IMG/VR virus record: IMGVR_UViG_2565956726_000008
Direction: 5' to 3' (one strand)
Source of the DNA: a virus
Taxonomy: Duplodnaviria > Heunggongvirae > Uroviricota > Caudoviricetes
Length of the DNA: 64,000 nucleotides
Part shown: positions 1,919 through 51,518 of the stretch, one piece after another
Numbering within the stretch: the stretch's first letter is position 1
Layout: each line of letters opens with the position of its first letter
Position numbers and translations under genes: made by a program
The notes under the pieces: generated by a model
Seen by the model: the letters and a program-made list of their open reading frames with translations, nothing else
Told to the model about the DNA's origin: nothing
The model's database searches: none

Positions 1919-2478
1919 AATTCCAACCCCGTTTCACCGTTAAGTTTTTCGATCTCAAATACTGGTTTATCCGGCAGCAGGCCGTTATTTTTCCGGTATT
2001 CATTCAGGCGGTTGTTAAATTCAAATACGATAGGACTCGAACAACCATAGAAGCGAGCTGATCTAAAAAAGTATTTCCCATCAAATTTATTAACTGTTAA
2101 TAAATTTTCACTGCCTAACATCTTTAAAACCCGACAAATTTTCCTCTGTTTTATTTCGAGTTTTAATTCTTTTTTAACATCCTCAGCAGAAAAATAATCG
2201 CTACTATTCAGAAATAAAGGCATGATTTTTTTTATTGCCATTTCGCGCACTGACTTCAAGCAATATGATAATCGCGGCCCTCCCATTTCCACAGGAATAA
2301 TAGCGCAGTCAGAAACCATATCACGCAAACTATTAACGATCTCGATTTCAGGACCTGGAATAGATTTAATAATTGTTGCTTCACCAGCAACAGTGGCATC
2401 CTGTAAAAATTTCGCTATTTGTGTTTTATAAATGGTTTTCATTGTTTCTAGCCTCGATTTAAGCGCGAAAACAGCCAC
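1915..2478 (-). CDS. hypothetical protein (187 aa)
   Basis: ORF immediately downstream of helicase gene; no motif recognised. Confidence 0.5.
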   Translation of the reverse strand: MAVFALKSRLETMKTIYKTQIAKFLQDATVAGEATIIKSIPGPEIEIVNSLRDMVSDCAIIPVEMGGPRLSYCLKSVREMAIKKIMPLFLNSSDYFSAEDVKKELKLEIKQRKICRVLKMLGSENLLTVNKFDGKYFFRSARFYGCSSPIVFEFNNRLNEYRKNNGLLPDKPVFEIEKLNGETGLEL

Positions 2479-2520
2479 CAGAAAGCGGTAAACTTTCCGG
2501 TAAGCCGTTTCTCAAGTTAA

Positions 2521-3942
2521 TTAAAAAGATGCGTTATTCTGGTTGTTTCGTGGTGAGAATCGGCTTGCAGACGGACGTTGTTGCATTGACTGGATGCAAG
2601 CTGACGCCGCGCGGGCCTGGTCGCATGGTAAGATGTTGCCGTTGTCGTCAAACCGCTGGTAAACAGTCCCCGTTTTCCCGTGACGGTTTTTCGAAACAAT
2701 GATCTCCATATATTCGCGGGCAACAGACTGTTCATCATAGTACCCGTCGCGGTAGACCATGATGATCCGGTCTGCGTCCTGTTCAAGATTACCGGAATCA
2801 CGCAGATCAGAATTGTTCGGGCGCTTGTTCGGTCGTTCCTCAACGCGGCGGGATAATTGCGCCAGTGCCAACACTGGTACGCGCAATTCTTTCGCCATCA
2901 TCTTCAACGACCATGACAATTGCCCTACAGCGAGATCGTGACGTTCGGCCTTAGCCAGCTTCATCAACCCGATGTAGTCAATCATTACCATACCGAGGTT
3001 GGGATGATCCTGTTTCATCCGTTCCGTTGTGGCGCGTATTTCCTCAACCGTTAATTGAGACGCGTCAACAATCCAAACGTCAAGATTAGCAAGTGCGCTC
3101 ATACCCTGACCAACATGCGCCCACCCCTCATCATCAAGTTTTACAGGATTACGCAGGCAGTCGGTTGATAAATTACCAGCGCCAGCTATAGCGCGTTCAG
3201 TCATCTGATCGAGTGACATTTCAAGCGTGAAGAACAAAACGCCAACCCGCTGATCTTTACTGCCAGGGTAAGGGTGCTCAGCAGCAGCGCGGGCAATCGC
3301 CAGCGCCAACGCAGATTTACCAGACCCAGGGCGTCCGGCGAGAAGTACCAAATCAGTAGCGTTAATACCGCCTAACATTTCGTCGAGCGGTTCTATCCCT
3401 GTTTTGATGTTGTCAGAATTGACACCGCATTCCATGCGCTTGCTTAAAACCTCTGTGTATTCCTGTACCGCATCGCGCAACAGAACAGGAATGATCTTGT
3501 CTTTCGTTACCTTTAATTTTGAATACCGGGAATCAAAATCTTTCATCGTCTCTTTGACGACTTCAAGCGTCCCCGTTTCCAGCTTGTAGCGCATATCGTC
3601 GATGAGTTCTAACATCTGCCGCCGCTGGTGCTCTTCACGTAGTAGCTGCGCATAGCCTTTCAGGTTTGCGGCAGAAGGACACGAACGCGCCGTTTGCATT
3701 AGCGGTACAAAGTTTTCATTGCCAATCTCATCGCCAACCAATAACGCGTCGATAAGATTCCTGTTTCTGGCTTGCGCCCGGATAACTTCAAACGCACGCT
3801 TGTAAAGCGGGATCGTGAACACTTCAGGATCCAGAGTGGCGAGAACATCTTGCGCGTTAGGAGTGAGGCCGCCTAACAGCAGCCCGCCGATAACTGACGC
3901 TTCACGTTCCTGCCGTAGTGAGTTTATTTGCTCGGTTACCAT
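2521..3942 (-). CDS. DnaB-type replicative DNA helicase
   Basis: 473 aa; Walker A GRPGSGKSALAL, Walker B VMIDYIGLM, typical DnaB C-terminal RecA-like core; N-terminal DnaB-N-like region. Confidence 0.85.
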   Translation of the reverse strand: MVTEQINSLRQEREASVIGGLLLGGLTPNAQDVLATLDPEVFTIPLYKRAFEVIRAQARNRNLIDALLVGDEIGNENFVPLMQTARSCPSAANLKGYAQLLREEHQRRQMLELIDDMRYKLETGTLEVVKETMKDFDSRYSKLKVTKDKIIPVLLRDAVQEYTEVLSKRMECGVNSDNIKTGIEPLDEMLGGINATDLVLLAGRPGSGKSALALAIARAAAEHPYPGSKDQRVGVLFFTLEMSLDQMTERAIAGAGNLSTDCLRNPVKLDDEGWAHVGQGMSALANLDVWIVDASQLTVEEIRATTERMKQDHPNLGMVMIDYIGLMKLAKAERHDLAVGQLSWSLKMMAKELRVPVLALAQLSRRVEERPNKRPNNSDLRDSGNLEQDADRIIMVYRDGYYDEQSVAREYMEIIVSKNRHGKTGTVYQRFDDNGNILPCDQARAASACIQSMQQRPSASRFSPRNNQNNASF

Positions 3943-3960
3943 TATGTTATTGCCTCCGGT

Positions 3961-26132: not shown

Positions 26133-26590
26133 AGACGTTAATTATCGCCGCCATTGTTTGTATTGTTGTTGGGCTTGTTGCCGCGCTTAGTCATTGCCAG
26201 TCAGTGATAAACACAATGCAAAGCGAGCTAACGACCACGCAAGGCGCACTAAAAACAGCGAGTAACACTATTCAGCAGATGAAGGAGCGAAACGCCGAAC
26301 TGTCAAAACTTGATAAGAGGTATCACGATGAAATTAAAGCTATCAGATCTGACATTGCCGATCTGCGCACTGGTATTGATAGCGGCGCTATCCGGTTGCA
26401 CGTCAACGCCGAACCAGTGCGATTGCTCGACAATACCGGAACCGCCAGCCGCATTGATGGAGCCACCTGTAGACTCACTCCAGACGCTGAATCGGCTTAT
26501 CTATCCCTCAGAGAACAATTAAAAGAAAAAGACGCGAAGATCACCGGATTGCAGGACTACATCAATACGCAGTGCTTACGCAAAGAATAA
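26120..26590 (+). CDS. Rz-type i-spanin
   Basis: 156 aa; N-terminal TM helix, coiled-coil periplasmic domain; contains embedded out-of-frame lipoprotein ORF. Confidence 0.7.
26328..26522 (+). CDS. Rz1-type o-spanin (lipoprotein) embedded in Rz
   Basis: 64 aa in +1 frame; own RBS agaggt; lipobox LSGC; Pro-rich mature region. Confidence 0.6.
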   Translation: MKLKLSDLTLPICALVLIAALSGCTSTPNQCDCSTIPEPPAALMEPPVDSLQTLNRLIYPSENN

Positions 26591-37846: not shown

Positions 37847-38533
37847 GTGAATACTATGATCCATGTTCGTACAGGACAATTTGCTGCCGTGGTGAACGGT
37901 AAGCGCTATGAGTTTAATCCTTGCTTTGCTGCGATGGCTAAAATCGGCAACGATAGTGAGCTTGTCGAATATTTCGCACTTATCCACGGCGGCAAATATC
38001 CATCACGATTGCCAGCAGATCCAGACCTCCGCAATCGCATTATGGCGCGGTGTTATGGTGAGATAGTACAAACGTCAATGCGCATCCTGAAATGTTGCTC
38101 AGACGACGAAATAGCCCCGTTATTGGGTGAATGTAGGTCAACTTCTTCCGGCAAGTTACGACTAAAACCCGGACTGATGCCGACCAGTGACGTTATCACG
38201 CTGGCACAACATTGCATGTACCACGGTTTAATCGGTGACGGGCCAGAAGAAGACGCCGGAGAGATCCGGGAAGGGGAATATAAGCCGACTTTTAACGTGC
38301 TGGAATTCGTTTATTCTGCCGTAGCTCACCTGGGATTATCTGAATCAGAAGCGTGGAATATGACAATGACCGGATATAGGGCCGCTGTACGCGCTAAAAC
38401 GCCGCCAGAAGCAAGAAACAAACAAAAACGCCCAAATGTATTGCTGGATAAAAAGGCTTATGACGATGGAATGAATGGTGCTATGGAGATACTAAAAAGA
38501 ATGAAAAATCGCGAGCAAGAAAAAACCCGGTAG
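37847..38533 (+). CDS. tail assembly chaperone candidate
   Basis: about 225 aa; position between major tail and tape measure genes; start GTG 37847 or ATG 37856. Confidence 0.4.
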   Translation: MNTMIHVRTGQFAAVVNGKRYEFNPCFAAMAKIGNDSELVEYFALIHGGKYPSRLPADPDLRNRIMARCYGEIVQTSMRILKCCSDDEIAPLLGECRSTSSGKLRLKPGLMPTSDVITLAQHCMYHGLIGDGPEEDAGEIREGEYKPTFNVLEFVYSAVAHLGLSESEAWNMTMTGYRAAVRAKTPPEARNKQKRPNVLLDKKAYDDGMNGAMEILKRMKNREQEKTR

Positions 38534-38548
38534 ATCCGGGCGTTTTTG
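38526..38548. terminator. bidirectional terminator hairpin
   Basis: aaaacccggtagatccgggcgtttttgtt between convergent genes. Confidence 0.7.
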
Positions 38549-38558
38549 TTAAGTTCGC

Positions 38559-38879
38559 TTATGCTATTTTTTCGTAAAGCACATTCATCTGGGTGCGAAT
38601 CACTGTTAATATATTGATTGCTGCGTTCTTATTAATGCGTTTATTCGCTACTATTTTTGTTTTCCCATCAATAACAACCAGATCTGCGTGCAATACATGG
38701 TTGAAGTTGACAATGTAATAATACTGTTTATCGCCAACATGTTGAACATATGCACCATTTAGATTTCCTTTATACCCACAATCACGCTCTGCGACACCGA
38801 AGTCAAATTCGCGGTTCATCTTGCGATTATATGCTACTTGTTTATGTTCCCATTTTCTCATCCATTCATCGCGTTTCAT
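38559..38879 (-). CDS. moron: hypothetical protein (106 aa)
   Basis: Minus-strand ORF inside plus-strand tail module. Confidence 0.5.
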   Translation of the reverse strand: MKRDEWMRKWEHKQVAYNRKMNREFDFGVAERDCGYKGNLNGAYVQHVGDKQYYYIVNFNHVLHADLVVIDGKTKIVANKRINKNAAINILTVIRTQMNVLYEKIA

Positions 38880-38888
38880 GTTTCACCC

Positions 38889-39548
38889 TTAATTCCAGTT
38901 GCAAGCGTTTTTCACTTTGTCGATGTGGTTATAAAGACCATCAATGTTAAACACTGCTTTCTCAATGTCGCCAGCTTCCGGCACTGCTTCAATGATAAAT
39001 TGTTTTTCGTTAACCAGTTTTTTAATCATTGGGATGGCTTTTTTGCCGTCCCATAATCCAAGAGCTTTATAATTAGTTGACCGCCACCACTCAGTAGCTA
39101 CAGCTTTGTGATCGCCGATCCGGTAGTTAATATAAGTAGTGTCCCCAGCGTCAGTTACATGGTTTGACCATGCTACGAACATTTTTGTTTTATTACCCTG
39201 GCAAGCGATTGTTAATACAGGTTTGTTTTCATCCCGTGCTTTCAGTGTAGGGAAAGCATCAAGACTTCCGCTGAAATGTTCTGCTTTCACGAAAAGGAAC
39301 ACGTTTTTTGTGTCCTGCATATCATCTTTTCTTTCGACCACAAGCCACTGTTTACCAGCTTTTTCTTTTGCTAACTGTGCCTCATATGCGGCTTGTTTTG
39401 CTTGTTGTTCTGCAAGCCATTTAGCATTTTTCTCTGCTAATGCTTGTTGTTCTTGAGTGGTCACTATAGGCGCTTTTTCATTATCCTCATTGCAACCAAC
39501 CAGACCCAATACCGCCGCAATCATTGCCACTTTTGCTAACCGTTTCAT
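38889..39548 (-). CDS. moron: lipoprotein (219 aa)
   Basis: Signal peptide MKRLAKVAMIAAVLGLVGC with lipobox LVGC; Ala/Gln/Lys-rich coiled segment. Confidence 0.65.
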   Translation of the reverse strand: MKRLAKVAMIAAVLGLVGCNEDNEKAPIVTTQEQQALAEKNAKWLAEQQAKQAAYEAQLAKEKAGKQWLVVERKDDMQDTKNVFLFVKAEHFSGSLDAFPTLKARDENKPVLTIACQGNKTKMFVAWSNHVTDAGDTTYINYRIGDHKAVATEWWRSTNYKALGLWDGKKAIPMIKKLVNEKQFIIEAVPEAGDIEKAVFNIDGLYNHIDKVKNACNWN

Positions 39549-39593
39549 AACCCACCACGCTAACTTGATTTACTGACCATTCCCTTTGGCTTC

Positions 39594-39655
39594 TTTATAC
39601 AAAATGGAGTCGTTGAAGTAAAGCCATTTTGTATAAAATAGATACACAGATCACA
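39594..39655. repeat. Intergenic palindrome TTTATACAAAATGG-N16-CCATTTTGTATAAAA plus ACACAGATCACA
   Basis: Lies 20-80 bp upstream of tape measure start. Confidence 0.7.
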
Positions 39656-39675
39656 TTTTTGCATGAGGTTAAATC

Positions 39676-42018
39676 ATGGATACCAGTGTAGGTACAATTT
39701 ATTACGAAGTTGATGCGAAAACTAGTCAACTTCTCGTTGCACAACGACAGGCAGACCAGGCCTTTGGGCGTATAGAGCGCGGCGCAAAACAGGCTGACCG
39801 CCAGGTAAACACCCTGAAAACATCCATCAAGGCACTGACCAGGGTTATCCATTTGCTAATTGCTGCGGAGGCCGTGCGTCAATTCATGGATATGGCGGAG
39901 CAAGCAAAAATGCTTCGCGTAAAAATCAAAATGCTTACGGGCGATGCGGAGTCCGCCGGACGGGTTTTTGATGGCCTGAAAGCAATATCAAAAGAAACAG
40001 GCCAAAGCATGAAGGATACCGGGGATCTGTGGCAAGGCTTAGCTATCTCACTGAAGAACACGTCCGCCACTGAAGGGCAATTGCTTAACCTGGTAGGTAC
40101 GATTCAGAAAATGGGGGCATTAGGCGGCGCGTCAGCGGAACAGATGTCTAACTCAATGCGTCAATTCCGTCAGTCTATCGACGGCGGTGTTCTTCGTGCC
40201 GAAGAATTTAACAGCCTGCTTGAAAATACGCCGACCATCGTACAAACAATGGCCCGCCATATGGGATTATCAATGGGCCAGTTCCGCGCCGAAATGCTGG
40301 ACGGCAAGATCACGGCTGAAAGGATGGTTAACGCAATACAGGCGGCTACGCAGGAAACAAACGATAAGTTTGCTCAGTTGCCGCGCACATCCGGCATGGC
40401 TATCAATGAGCTTAAAGTAGAAATTATGGGCCTTGTTGAGCAGTTGGATGATCTTTTTGGCGTGTCAGATGGCGTTGTTTCAGCTATCGACTTGATCACG
40501 AAAGGCGTTAAAGGGCTTGGCGATGGCGCTAAATTCGCTAAAACCTGCTTCGACACACTCAAAACGGCTGGTAGCGAATTTATCGACATGTTTGATGATG
40601 TGGCTGTTAAGGCTGGAGAGGTGGCAGAGAAGATCATCGCAATGGTGACGCCAATCAAGGCGCTAATGGATGGCTATAAATGGATGAAGGAGGTAGTAGG
40701 AGAGCAAACCGACGAATATAACAGCAACTACGAGAAGAAATACGGGAAGACCGTTGGCAAGGTCATGCAACTACAGGATGATCTGACCGCAGCAATCCAG
40801 GCTACAGAAGAAGCAAGGAAAAATGAACAGAATGCTGCCAATGACGGAGCGATTACCGGATTCGACAAGCCAGTAGACAAGCCGAAAAAACAGAAAAAAG
40901 AGAAGAAATCGGAAGCTGATCGGCTTGGTGACAAAGGTATAAGCGTTTCTGATCAGTACAACAAAGACGCCGCCGCCATGCGCAAAGCGTTGGAGAACGG
41001 CAAGGCCATTGATGCTGCATTTGCCCAGGGTAAAATCACGCTCCTTGAGTACCGCGCCGCGCAAAAAGGGATCGGCAAGGAACTGAAAGAAGAATTAGCA
41101 CAAATTCCGGTAGATGAATTGCGTGATAAATGGTCACAAATAGTAAGCCCGATGGATCAGCTAAAAGGCGAAGTTGACCCCATCCAGCAGGCGCAAAATG
41201 AATGGGCCATCCGTAAGCAAATGCTTATAGACCTGGGCGCTACTGAAGCGCAACAGAAACAGGAATTGTTAGCCTATGAGCAACAGATCCGCGATCTGAA
41301 ATGGGAACAATGGCAGGCGCAAAGCGACACAAACGGCCTTATCGGTGATTGTGTTAATGGCCTTAAAGGCGGAATGAGTAATGCGCTTGTTGGCCTGTTA
41401 AACGGCACTCAATCATTGAGTGATGTTTTTGCTAACTTAGGAAGCAATATACTCGGCAATATCGGTAACAGACTCTCAGACATAGCTGCAAACTGGATAG
41501 CAGATCAGATCATGATGGAGACACAAAGCAAGGCCACGCAAACAAGTACAACAGCAAGCGCGGTAGCAGCTCAGGGAAGCATTGCTGCGGCGGCGGCCCC
41601 AGCAGCGGCGGCAACTGCGGCGTCAACTGGCGGTAGCTGGGCGGCGGCTGGTTCGGCGGCGCTCACTGCGATCATGTCGCTGGCTACGTCAATTTTCGGC
41701 GGCGGTCGCTTTAATGGTGGTAGCGTCATTGGTGGTAATATGTACCGCGTAGGGGAACACAACAGGCCGGAGCTATTCCAGACATCTAACGGCAATCAAT
41801 ATATGATCCCTGGCGAGAACGGCAGAGTTATTCCGGGCCGTGATATTGGCGGCGGTGGCGGTATTAGTATGCCTGTCAGTATCAGCATTCAGACCACGAA
41901 CGGATTCAGCGACGAAGACAGCCGCAGACTTGAATTAACAATGGAACGTGTAGCCATGAAAATGATAACAAGGGAATCTCAAAGACCAGGCGGAATGTTG
42001 CAACCTCGCCGCAAATAA
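39676..42018 (+). CDS. tail tape measure protein
   Basis: 780 aa; long alpha-helical protein with Ala/Gly-rich C-terminal region; upstream of M/L/K/I/J-like genes. Confidence 0.75.
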   Translation: MDTSVGTIYYEVDAKTSQLLVAQRQADQAFGRIERGAKQADRQVNTLKTSIKALTRVIHLLIAAEAVRQFMDMAEQAKMLRVKIKMLTGDAESAGRVFDGLKAISKETGQSMKDTGDLWQGLAISLKNTSATEGQLLNLVGTIQKMGALGGASAEQMSNSMRQFRQSIDGGVLRAEEFNSLLENTPTIVQTMARHMGLSMGQFRAEMLDGKITAERMVNAIQAATQETNDKFAQLPRTSGMAINELKVEIMGLVEQLDDLFGVSDGVVSAIDLITKGVKGLGDGAKFAKTCFDTLKTAGSEFIDMFDDVAVKAGEVAEKIIAMVTPIKALMDGYKWMKEVVGEQTDEYNSNYEKKYGKTVGKVMQLQDDLTAAIQATEEARKNEQNAANDGAITGFDKPVDKPKKQKKEKKSEADRLGDKGISVSDQYNKDAAAMRKALENGKAIDAAFAQGKITLLEYRAAQKGIGKELKEELAQIPVDELRDKWSQIVSPMDQLKGEVDPIQQAQNEWAIRKQMLIDLGATEAQQKQELLAYEQQIRDLKWEQWQAQSDTNGLIGDCVNGLKGGMSNALVGLLNGTQSLSDVFANLGSNILGNIGNRLSDIAANWIADQIMMETQSKATQTSTTASAVAAQGSIAAAAAPAAAATAASTGGSWAAAGSAALTAIMSLATSIFGGGRFNGGSVIGGNMYRVGEHNRPELFQTSNGNQYMIPGENGRVIPGRDIGGGGGISMPVSISIQTTNGFSDEDSRRLELTMERVAMKMITRESQRPGGMLQPRRK

Positions 42019-42104: not shown

Positions 42105-42359
42105 TCACTTATGAGTGCCTTTCACGCCACATAACTTGTTATAGGCATGGTGCTCAACAATTAACCAAACCTTCAAATCTTCGCTAAACAGCCTCCAATC
42201 AAGATTGATATCCATTTTGTATCCGTAACCGTCGCGTAACTTTTTGGGGTAAACTTCTTTTCTCAGAAAGGCTTTAAGTAATTCCTTACCTTTCTTGATG
42301 ATCCGGTCCTGTGCGTTTTTCTGTGCTTTCAGATTTCTGTCAATCGCTACCAGTTTCAT
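42105..42359 (-). CDS. moron: RelE/YafQ-like toxin candidate (84 aa)
   Basis: By-eye resemblance of C-terminal half (DINLDWRLF...GTHK) to YafQ (EPDWILIY...TGTH); second gene of a two-gene minus-strand cassette. Confidence 0.35.
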   Translation of the reverse strand: MKLVAIDRNLKAQKNAQDRIIKKGKELLKAFLRKEVYPKKLRDGYGYKMDINLDWRLFSEDLKVWLIVEHHAYNKLCGVKGTHK

Positions 42360-42377
42360 AACTCACCCCATCATCCT

Positions 42378-42533
42378 TAGTTAAGTGCCTTCAGGAAGAA
42401 GTCCCGGTATTCATCTTCTTTCGCATTCATCATGAATTGACCGTATTTGAATGCGTCGTCGAAACCCTTAACGATTGCTATTTCCACTTGTTCGAATGCG
42501 TTATTTAGCATTACTACTACATAGCGTTTCATT
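42378..42533 (-). CDS. moron: small protein (51 aa), antitoxin candidate
   Basis: ATG with aaggagg RBS; translation MKRYVVVMLNNAFEQVEIAIVKGFDDAFKYGQFMMNAKEDEYRDFFLKALN. Confidence 0.35.
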
Positions 42534-51138: not shown

Positions 51139-51384
51139 TTATTTTTTACACCCATCATTTACACCAGAAAAATGGATAGGTAAATTACATTCACTGTCAA
51201 TAATTTTACCTTGTAGTTGTTTTTCTTTCCATGAGTCAGTATTGAAATAACTCGAACGTTGGTTATCAAGGCCAGTATCACCATATTGAGCAGTGCCAGC
51301 ATCACTCTTATCTGTCGAATTTACAGAAGCAAAAGCACCAAAAGACAGAGCTGATAAGATGCAAGCAACAATTAGTTTTTTCAT
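51139..51384 (-). CDS. moron: small secreted protein (81 aa)
   Basis: ATG at 51384 with aaggtga RBS; signal peptide MKKLIVACILSALSFGAFA; two Cys near C-terminus. Confidence 0.55.
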   Translation of the reverse strand: MKKLIVACILSALSFGAFASVNSTDKSDAGTAQYGDTGLDNQRSSYFNTDSWKEKQLQGKIIDSECNLPIHFSGVNDGCKK

Positions 51385-51518
51385 TGTATTCACCTTACTG
51401 TTTGTTTTACTGTCATTTGTTGTTCGTGATGATCCACCCATCCGATGAGCAAATCACCGCAGAAGCTATCATTTCGTATGTTGATATAGATCAAAAAATA
51501 CACTATGTATAAGCCCAA

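Follow-up and report, generated by a model that had tools for sequence, protein, structure and literature searches.

A predicted lipidated VasI/TagO-family protein in a tail-region cargo cassette of an mEp021-group Escherichia coli prophage

The window analysed here is a 64,000-nucleotide stretch of the IMG/VR virus record IMGVR_UViG_2565956726_000008, which belongs to an Escherichia coli prophage of the mEp021/mEpimmI group, a temperate siphophage. Between the tail chaperone and tape measure genes of this prophage lie two genes on the opposite strand, the first of which encodes a putative lipoprotein of 219 amino acids (aa) and the second a 106-aa orphan protein. Judged from its sequence, the lipoprotein belongs to the VasI/TagO family, within which it is a divergent and lipidated member; the first-pass annotation of this DNA had missed this membership. 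The two genes appear to occupy a slot in which cargo genes are exchanged among related phages. We tentatively read the lipoprotein as a periplasmic anti-phage factor that would be expressed from the prophage and would act independently of receptor type, and we put the probability of this reading at roughly 0.4. Several parts of the picture are already known, namely the TagO annotation of the gene, the listing of phage-borne VasI proteins, the family itself and the moron concept; what is new is the lipidated, stalked phage clade, the behaviour of the cassette, and a contextual case for VasI domains as conflict cargo. In none of the papers we found is a function assigned to any phage-borne VasI, and the VasI-type gene is mentioned neither in the text nor in the supplements of the paper on mEpimmI phages (PMC11893012).

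The lipoprotein and its place in the VasI/TagO family

The N-terminus of the lipoprotein, MKRLAKVAMIAAVLGLVGC, has a basic n-region followed by a hydrophobic core, and the signal ends in the lipobox L-V-G-C; G15, L16, G18 and C19 are invariant in 12 homologue clusters retrieved by a word-index search. The residue that follows the lipidated cysteine governs membrane sorting, according to the established +2 rule; it is Asn here and Arg, Asp, Gly or Glu in relatives, and thus most alleles would be expected to reach the outer membrane. An AlphaFold2 model built with 94 sequences (overall predicted local distance difference test score, pLDDT, 89.6) divides the protein into four parts: the signal peptide, a non-helical tether of lower confidence (residues 20-30), a single helix (residues 31-63, with block-mean pLDDT of 93-97) and a beta domain (residues 69-215). 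The helix would serve as a stalk that leads from the lipid anchor to the globular domain. Within the 94-member family alignment, both cysteines of the beta domain are invariant, as is W218 of the C-terminal CxW, and C116 and C216 probably form a periplasmic disulfide. In addition, nearly all inspected family members begin with a hydrophobic, signal-peptide-like N-terminus.

Two other identities suggested by the N-terminal half were rejected. The likeness of the helix to the alanine zipper of Lpp/OprI lies below threshold (E 0.097) and is a resemblance, nothing more. Against a role as spanin or in lysis stand the weakness of the Rz-like PHROG match (E 0.052), which comes from the signal peptide and the helix, and the long distance of the gene from what seems to be the lysis region, near 26 kb.

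Family membership is shown by the Pfam profile VasI (PF11319), which matches residues 55-218 on profile positions 25-184 with 59.2 bits, against a gathering cut-off of 26.5 (E 5.6e-16). The protein also matches phrog_1848, a group of unknown function (E 1.8e-57), and the RefSeq product name of its gene is type VI secretion system (T6SS)-associated protein TagO. The NCBIfam equivalog model for this name, TIGR03360, scores 47 bits and falls short of its cut-off of 124.2. The TagO of E. coli Sakai (ECs_0222), encoded between clpV and tssA, is 33% identical over 113 aa, half of the protein (E 7e-12), and C116, C216 and W218 align with it. The phage protein and VasI/TagO proteins thus have in common a homologous beta domain that scores above the Pfam threshold, the two cysteines with the CxW, export, and a size of about 200-250 aa. 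However, the phage gene lies in a prophage tail operon rather than in a T6SS cluster, and its product has a lipobox in place of a type-I signal. Moreover, the motif C..RL.CYD, which follows the type-I signal in most family representatives, in other phage copies and in the family consensus, is absent from the N-terminal part of the lipoprotein, where the lipobox, the tether and the long helix are found instead.

A HMMER scan of 1.84 billion representatives with a profile of the phage clade recovered 2066 family clusters, of which just 6 reach E <= 1e-30, so the lipidated phage clade appears to be small and isolated within the family. When the AlphaFold2 model was used for a fold search of BFVD, uncharacterised phage proteins were returned and nothing else. 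Among these, the fold is common to the virulent T4-like phages RB16, KP15 and Aeromonas 65.2, to Vibrio VH7D and to Serratia MTx (Foldseek E 1e-6 to 5e-4); in view of the T4-like matches, the VasI-type fold is not confined to temperate phages.

The cargo cassette between the chaperone and tape measure genes

Base composition sets the two genes apart from their surroundings (Table 1). Their G+C content is 0.41 for the lipoprotein gene and 0.37 for the 106-aa gene, against 0.47-0.50 for the flanking tail genes, and their G+C content at third codon positions is 0.36-0.37, against 0.45-0.51 for the neighbours. The insert also has a terminator of its own, a hairpin that reads GCCCGGATCTACCGGGT followed by a T-run on the minus strand and CCCGGTAGATCCGGG followed by a T-run on the plus strand, and that terminates the DUF6246 gene on the plus strand as well as the cargo operon of two genes on the minus strand. 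Furthermore, presence of the insert varies among related genomes: the slot is seen in 33 E. coli genomes, the lipoprotein gene occupies it in 15 of the 20 that are listed, and in mEp021, LSU61 and GN05505 the slot contains the gene of a 137-138-aa protein, which has a signal peptide in both cases that were inspected. Deviant base composition, an own terminator and presence or absence among relatives are the marks of a moron in the sense of Juhala and Hendrix, and we regard the region as a cargo (moron) cassette that a temperate siphophage of the mEp021 group carries in its chaperone/tape-measure slot. The region as a whole shares 98.7% identity with that of E. coli M1/5; parts of it share about 82-89% with mEp021, mEp044, mEp013 and other phages of the group.

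Table 1. Features of the cassette and its flanks, with positions in the window
Feature	Position	Strand	Basis or remark
DUF6246 gene, upstream flank	37847-38533	+	tail assembly chaperone position; PF19759 E 2e-54; phrog_791
Bidirectional intrinsic terminator hairpin, G+C-rich	38525-38541	both	terminator scan
106-aa orphan gene, second in operon	38559-38879	-	
9-nt junction with Shine-Dalgarno-like GGGTG	38880-38888	-	cassette boundary; alternative second genes diverge here
219-aa predicted lipoprotein gene, VasI/TagO family, phage clade	38889-39548	-	
VasI beta domain, codons 66-218, with family-invariant C116, C216, W218	38895-39353	-	
Single Ala/Gln/Lys/Glu-rich helix, codons 31-63, putative stalk	39360-39458	-	DSSP on AlphaFold2 model
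Lipoprotein signal peptide, codons 1-19, lipobox LVGC (residues 16-19), Asn at +2	39492-39548	-	
Candidate sigma-70 promoter for cargo operon	39594-39622	-	read by eye; weak
Perfect inverted repeat, 14-nt arms, TTTATACAAAATGG-N16-CCATTTTGTATAAA	39594-39637	.	
Tape measure protein gene, downstream flank	39676-42018	+	PF20155 TMP_3 E 6e-49; phrog_1538 E 6e-158

Both open reading frames (ORFs) of the insert are genuine genes under purifying selection. Among 11 alleles of the lipoprotein gene, the pairwise ratio of nonsynonymous to synonymous substitution rates (dN/dS) is mostly 0.13-0.26 and is higher solely in near-identical pairs; diversifying selection was looked for in these alleles and none was seen, with dN/dS at about 0.2. 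The 106-aa gene has a dN/dS of 0.26, with dS at 0.61. The two genes are separated by 9 nt (TAA-GGGTGAAAC-ATG), a spacing from which we take them to be operonic.

The second gene of the operon is not constant. In a comparison that took in 18 IMG/VR loci and several RefSeq genomes, the VasI gene is followed by the 106-aa gene in 8 of the 18 loci, by an unrelated 124-aa lipoprotein gene in 9, and by no second gene in one, L024, which carries a 60%-identical allele; a further locus, L010, ends too early to show a second gene and is left out of this count. Between the 106-aa and 124-aa variants, similarity stops directly after TAA-GGG. In addition, a 72%-identical homologue of the 106-aa protein follows an unrelated secreted protein of 160 aa in this slot. 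The 106-aa protein itself has no signal peptide and is predicted to be cytoplasmic; it matches no family and nothing in the phage databases, and its structure model is weak. Its gene is an independently assorting, swappable piece of cargo rather than an obligate partner of the lipoprotein gene. As for the alternative second gene, the 124-aa lipoprotein has a lipobox LTGC and a weak, sub-threshold similarity to BamE/DUF7738, and is a further exported cargo protein; its gene lies at 2248-2622 (minus strand) of L003 and is also found in L004, L011-L018, L023 and L029-L032.

The first gene varies as well, behind a constant leader. The lipoprotein gene and the tape measure gene diverge from a 127-nt stretch that contains the inverted repeat, and this repeat is kept across five different cargo variants of the slot. 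When this conserved divergent region was compared (window 39470-39680 against L005, L029, L002 and L024), the palindrome, the leader, the ribosome-binding site and the first ~15 codons (MKRLAKVA...) proved common to all the different first genes. This conservation suggests that recombination swaps mature domains behind a common module for expression and export. The leader of mEp021 and LSU61 has an extra insert of about 130-180 nt, which appears to hold a small ORF. The candidate promoter falls inside the conserved palindrome and consists of TTTACT (39622-39617), a 17-nt spacer and TATAAA (39599-39594), with 4/6 and 5/6 matches to the consensus hexamers.

Much of this anatomy had been seen beforehand. 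The first-pass annotation, made from the sequence alone, described minus-strand ORFs of 219 and 106 aa between the tail chaperone and tape measure genes, bracketed by a bidirectional terminator and a motif palindrome, and it pointed to the LVGC lipobox and to a coiled Ala/Gln/Lys-rich segment; all of these are borne out, and the coiled segment corresponds to the single helix of the AlphaFold2 model. It had also named the 106-aa gene alongside that of the lipoprotein. The two are indeed adjacent and operonic, but their association is not obligate, and the 106-aa gene is swapped or absent elsewhere.

Receptor type, relatives and a tentative anti-phage reading

Whether the lipoprotein goes with a particular receptor can be judged from J, the protein that determines receptor-binding type in its C-terminus. 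The C-terminus of J in the window recurs in 11 genomes, 10 of which have the lipoprotein gene, and GN05505 combines the same J C-terminus (99.8%) with an unrelated gene in the slot. Conversely, nearly the same lipoprotein occurs with at least three other J C-termini, in GF66.2, STEC306-308 and MLI107, whose alleles of the region are 90-95% identical; J of GF66.2 has 1144 aa, in place of the protein of 1620 aa. Carriage of the lipoprotein is thus uncoupled from the receptor-binding type of J in both directions. This lack of coupling speaks against a mechanism like that of Cor and Llp, in which the phage would block its own receptor, and it favours a step that is independent of the receptor.

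The company kept by VasI-family genes in other genomes is also informative. A tblastn search for the VasI domain over 50,697 phage records found it in temperate phages that are unrelated to one another, often at positions typical of lysogeny genes. In P2-like phages of Gemsvirus and Xuanwuvirus, in phiSM of Citrobacter rodentium and in Klebsiella phages, it lies beside the apparent prophage-host junction. In Brucella phage BiPBO1, gp67 is encoded immediately downstream of the CI-type repressor on the same strand, and in a Labrenzia phage the VasI-family gene lies in the immunity region. The homologue in Pasteurella phage Pmp14 lies downstream of the tail chaperone genes, beside a GHKL-ATPase/PD-(D/E)XK protein. 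The Pmp14 cargo island (L026, 1497-5540) encodes two exported hypothetical proteins, one of which is this homologue, and a 652-aa protein with HATPase_c_3 and PD-(D/E)XK/HSDR_N domains, which resembles a defence nuclease.

Outside these phage records, the contexts of eight further PF11319 proteins were looked up by exact protein. Two of the eight are encoded after Mor in Mu-like prophages of Halomonas, one directly after an S24 CI/LexA-type repressor in a Paracoccus prophage, and one in a defence island of Orrella, between a Type IIG/ISP restriction-modification enzyme, PDC-M72A and ZorD. None of the eight lies in a T6SS cluster, and the label 'T6SS-associated' does not seem to describe much of the VasI family. 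In the Orrella island (L036, Orrella sp., GCA_048820935.1, 1579-14330), an ankyrin protein matches the PADLOC candidate PDC-M72A with E 1.6e-63, and ZorD is matched with E 0; the VasI gene may be part of an undescribed defence unit there.

Two characterised systems provide precedents. Gene 15 of phage HK97, the founding moron, occupies the chaperone/tape-measure slot, and its product is a proven superinfection-exclusion protein that blocks genome entry (PMC3594210). The HK97 gene has the slot in common with the lipoprotein gene, and it is a horizontally acquired, independent transcription unit with an envelope-located product, as the lipoprotein gene would be; however, gp15 is a small YebO-like inner-membrane protein, unrelated in sequence, which is not a lipoprotein and has no VasI domain. 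The second precedent is SDIC4B from defence islands of Serratia, which is described as having a VasI-like fold without BLAST similarity to VasI, and which on its own gives E. coli MG1655 10-200-fold protection against several phages (bioRxiv 10.1101/2024.01.28.577318). Like the lipoprotein, it is small, has an N-terminal export signal and two similarly placed cysteines, and is accompanied by a dispensable gene. It differs from the lipoprotein in its type-I signal, which lacks a lipobox, and in its setting, since SDIC4B belongs to BrxR-associated chromosomal LptG-YjiA islands rather than to a phage tail operon. Sequence comparisons give no sign of direct homology to SDIC4A or SDIC4B; the 106-aa protein has no similarity to SDIC4A, and no BrxR is found near the locus.

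The anti-phage reading is based on the export features, the moron anatomy and the slot precedent of HK97 gp15, and equally on the repeated placement of relatives after lysogeny repressors and within a defence island, on the precedent of SDIC4B and on the uncoupling from J. In the mechanism we propose, the lipoprotein would be exported by Sec and lipidated at Cys19, and, given Asn at +2, the Lol system would probably deliver it to the outer membrane, on the inner leaflet. The short tether and the helix, about 5 nm long, would hold the disulfide-bonded VasI beta domain in the periplasm. With transcription of its own, opposed to the late operon, the protein could be made in the lysogen. Its periplasmic domain would then hinder superinfecting phages at a step after receptor binding, and the target might be the tail tip or tape measure and the passage of DNA through the periplasm, or an envelope component that the incoming phage needs. 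The receptor of the prophage's own J would not be masked in such a mechanism.

Several points weigh against this reading. Expression of the cargo operon in the lysogen is assumed, since scanning gave no convincing promoter: the automatic scan lists no sigma-70 site upstream of the operon, under a rule that demands T at position 6 of the -10 hexamer and hence leaves the TATAAA candidate unlisted. The anti-phage function of the lipoprotein and its close homologues is argued from context and by analogy, and PADLOC gives no match for the lipoprotein, nor for the 106-aa protein. The link to SDIC4B is indirect as well. The SDIC4B sequence, taken from the plasmid maps of the preprint, contains a Sec-type signal peptide and two cysteines, but it matches no Pfam family, VasI included, and its comparison with the lipoprotein by hhalign shows no similarity (probability 0.1, E 0.43), so the connection in fold rests on the preprint's own fold claim. 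In addition, the dN/dS values are free of the diversifying selection often seen in arms-race proteins. Finally, four of the eight sampled PF11319 members are stand-alone, ordinary chromosomal genes, in a sample that is small and biased to relatives caught by a profile seeded with the phage clade. Given these ordinary contexts, the VasI domain may have a housekeeping role in the envelope and may have been used by phages for ends other than defence.

Other explanations and further observations

One may argue that the lipoprotein is instead an envelope factor that benefits the host or its virulence, like Bor, Lom or IalB, and provides serum resistance, adhesion or invasion, or tolerance of envelope stress. 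The fold of its beta domain is similar to that of IalB from Bartonella (PDB 3dtd), but this likeness exists at the level of the fold, with 9% identity, there is no match to Pfam IalB at E up to 1, and the molecular function of IalB is itself undefined. Moreover, an outer-membrane lipoprotein that faces the periplasm is not obviously surface exposed, and conflict functions are the better match for a family whose members occur beside repressors and in a defence island. We therefore consider an envelope or virulence role unlikely.

A role in lysogenic conversion linked to the T6SS, in which this TagO homologue would raise the efficiency of the host's T6SS or shield the lysogen from T6SS attack, seems to us somewhat less likely still. 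Its homology to ECs_0222 is real, with both cysteines kept, and the family has a documented connection to this machinery: VasI of Vibrio cholerae (VCA0118), which is predicted to be exported, is dispensable for secretion of Hcp and VgrG, yet amoebae and E. coli are not fully killed without it (PMC3166118), and ORF1 of the C. rodentium phage phiSM is listed as a T6SS VasI cargo gene (PMC6456863). On the other hand, the lipoprotein stays well below the equivalog cut-off and lacks C..RL.CYD, and the sampled family members lie outside T6SS clusters. To our knowledge, Brucella and Pasteurella, whose phages carry homologues, are not genera known for a T6SS, and E. coli K-12/MG1655, in which SDIC4B works, has none.

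The first-pass annotation had favoured superinfection exclusion of the Cor and Llp kind, by a factor that blocks the receptor to which the phage's own J fibre binds, and had remarked that the protein is far larger than Cor and Llp. Exclusion, or an anti-phage role more generally, remains the likeliest function, but the part of the proposal that concerns the receptor is not supported, as the gene is uncoupled from J. Under receptor masking, the lipoprotein would inactivate the outer-membrane receptor of the phage's own J, which would stop superinfection and prevent loss of progeny on cell debris. Such lipoproteins are encoded in phage tail regions, as this one is, and they have been tested in this very phage group: Lpp021, a protein of 72 aa encoded after J, excludes phages that share its receptor, and so does Lpp010 (PMC11893012). 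The window has no homologue of Lpp021 that could take this part (a tblastn search with Lpp021 gave chance matches alone, with E above 2), and the sole other convincing lipobox ORF in the window, at 26328-26522 (plus strand), is proline-rich and looks like the o-spanin of the lysis cassette. However, proteins of the Cor/Llp/Lpp class match the receptor type, whereas the 219-aa protein shows no covariation with J, is dissimilar to Lpp021 and is three times larger. Moreover, relatives of the lipoprotein gene follow repressors or belong to Mu-like and P2-like phages, whose adsorption machinery is unrelated. Receptor masking by the lipoprotein is thus improbable.

A better candidate for receptor-matched exclusion may be a small minus-strand ORF after J (51139-51441), which occupies the position where mEp021 carries Lpp021, as Cor-like proteins do. 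From an internal Met start it reads MKKLIVACILSALSFGAFA..., with a type-I signal, and it has no family match. It travels with the J C-terminus, being located on the same >=99%-identical block in 11 of the 11 genomes that have this block.

Least probable of all is an obligate two-component system of toxin and antitoxin or of sensor and effector, like SDIC4A/B, which the 9-nt spacing, the common strand and the single common terminator might suggest but which is largely refuted by the distribution of the two genes, by the 106-aa homologue that stands behind an unrelated protein, by the location of one product in the cytoplasm and the other in the periplasm, and by the lack of resemblance of either to its SDIC4 counterpart.

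Beyond this locus, one may speculate that VasI/TagO proteins in general work in the periplasm, where they would engage the tips of tail-like injection machines on their way across the envelope, although we think this unlikely to hold for the family as a whole. If it were true, VasI in T6SS clusters would assist outward passage, and the copies in prophages and defence islands, this lipidated, stalked form among them, would stop incoming phage tail tips or DNA within the periplasm; there would then be a widespread and unrecognised class of receptor-independent superinfection exclusion, and the 'T6SS-associated' label would largely be a misnomer. No mechanism has been provided for VasI/TagO since the first genetic study in 2011, yet the proteins are annotated everywhere as T6SS-associated. 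An anti-phage function, if true, could assign a role to more than 2000 sequence clusters and mend a widespread annotation, whereas without an anti-phage effect the locus would be an ordinary moron. The cassette is also useful for understanding how temperate phages shuffle genes that modify the envelope.

The window contains further cargo. A second minus-strand island lies between the tape measure gene and a minor tail gene (42105-42532) and encodes an 84-aa, toxin-like protein akin to ParE; the 51-aa ORF ahead of it may encode an antitoxin. In the head module, the gene at about 30383-31774 (plus strand), which adjoins that of a minor head protein, has a counterpart in M1/5 and GF66.2 that is annotated in RefSeq as 'anti-CBASS protein Acb1 family protein'.

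The core of the palindrome upstream of the lipoprotein gene, TATACAAAATG, is repeated throughout the window, with 15 copies at no more than one mismatch against 2.2 expected, a number that no shuffle reached. The copies of TATACAAAATG(G) are located at 3960, 5098, 7968, 8811, 9490, 12917, 16279, 16347, 22957, 31587, 39596, 39625, 42213, 42604 and 42672. All but one of the 15 lie outside long ORFs, each upstream of an ORF on the same strand, and some are just ~20 nt ahead of a start codon. Copies in opposite orientation bracket divergent regions (16279/16347, 39596/39625 and 42604/42672), and the motif flanks the second cargo island on both strands. The repeated motif looks like a phage-specific regulatory or promoter element.

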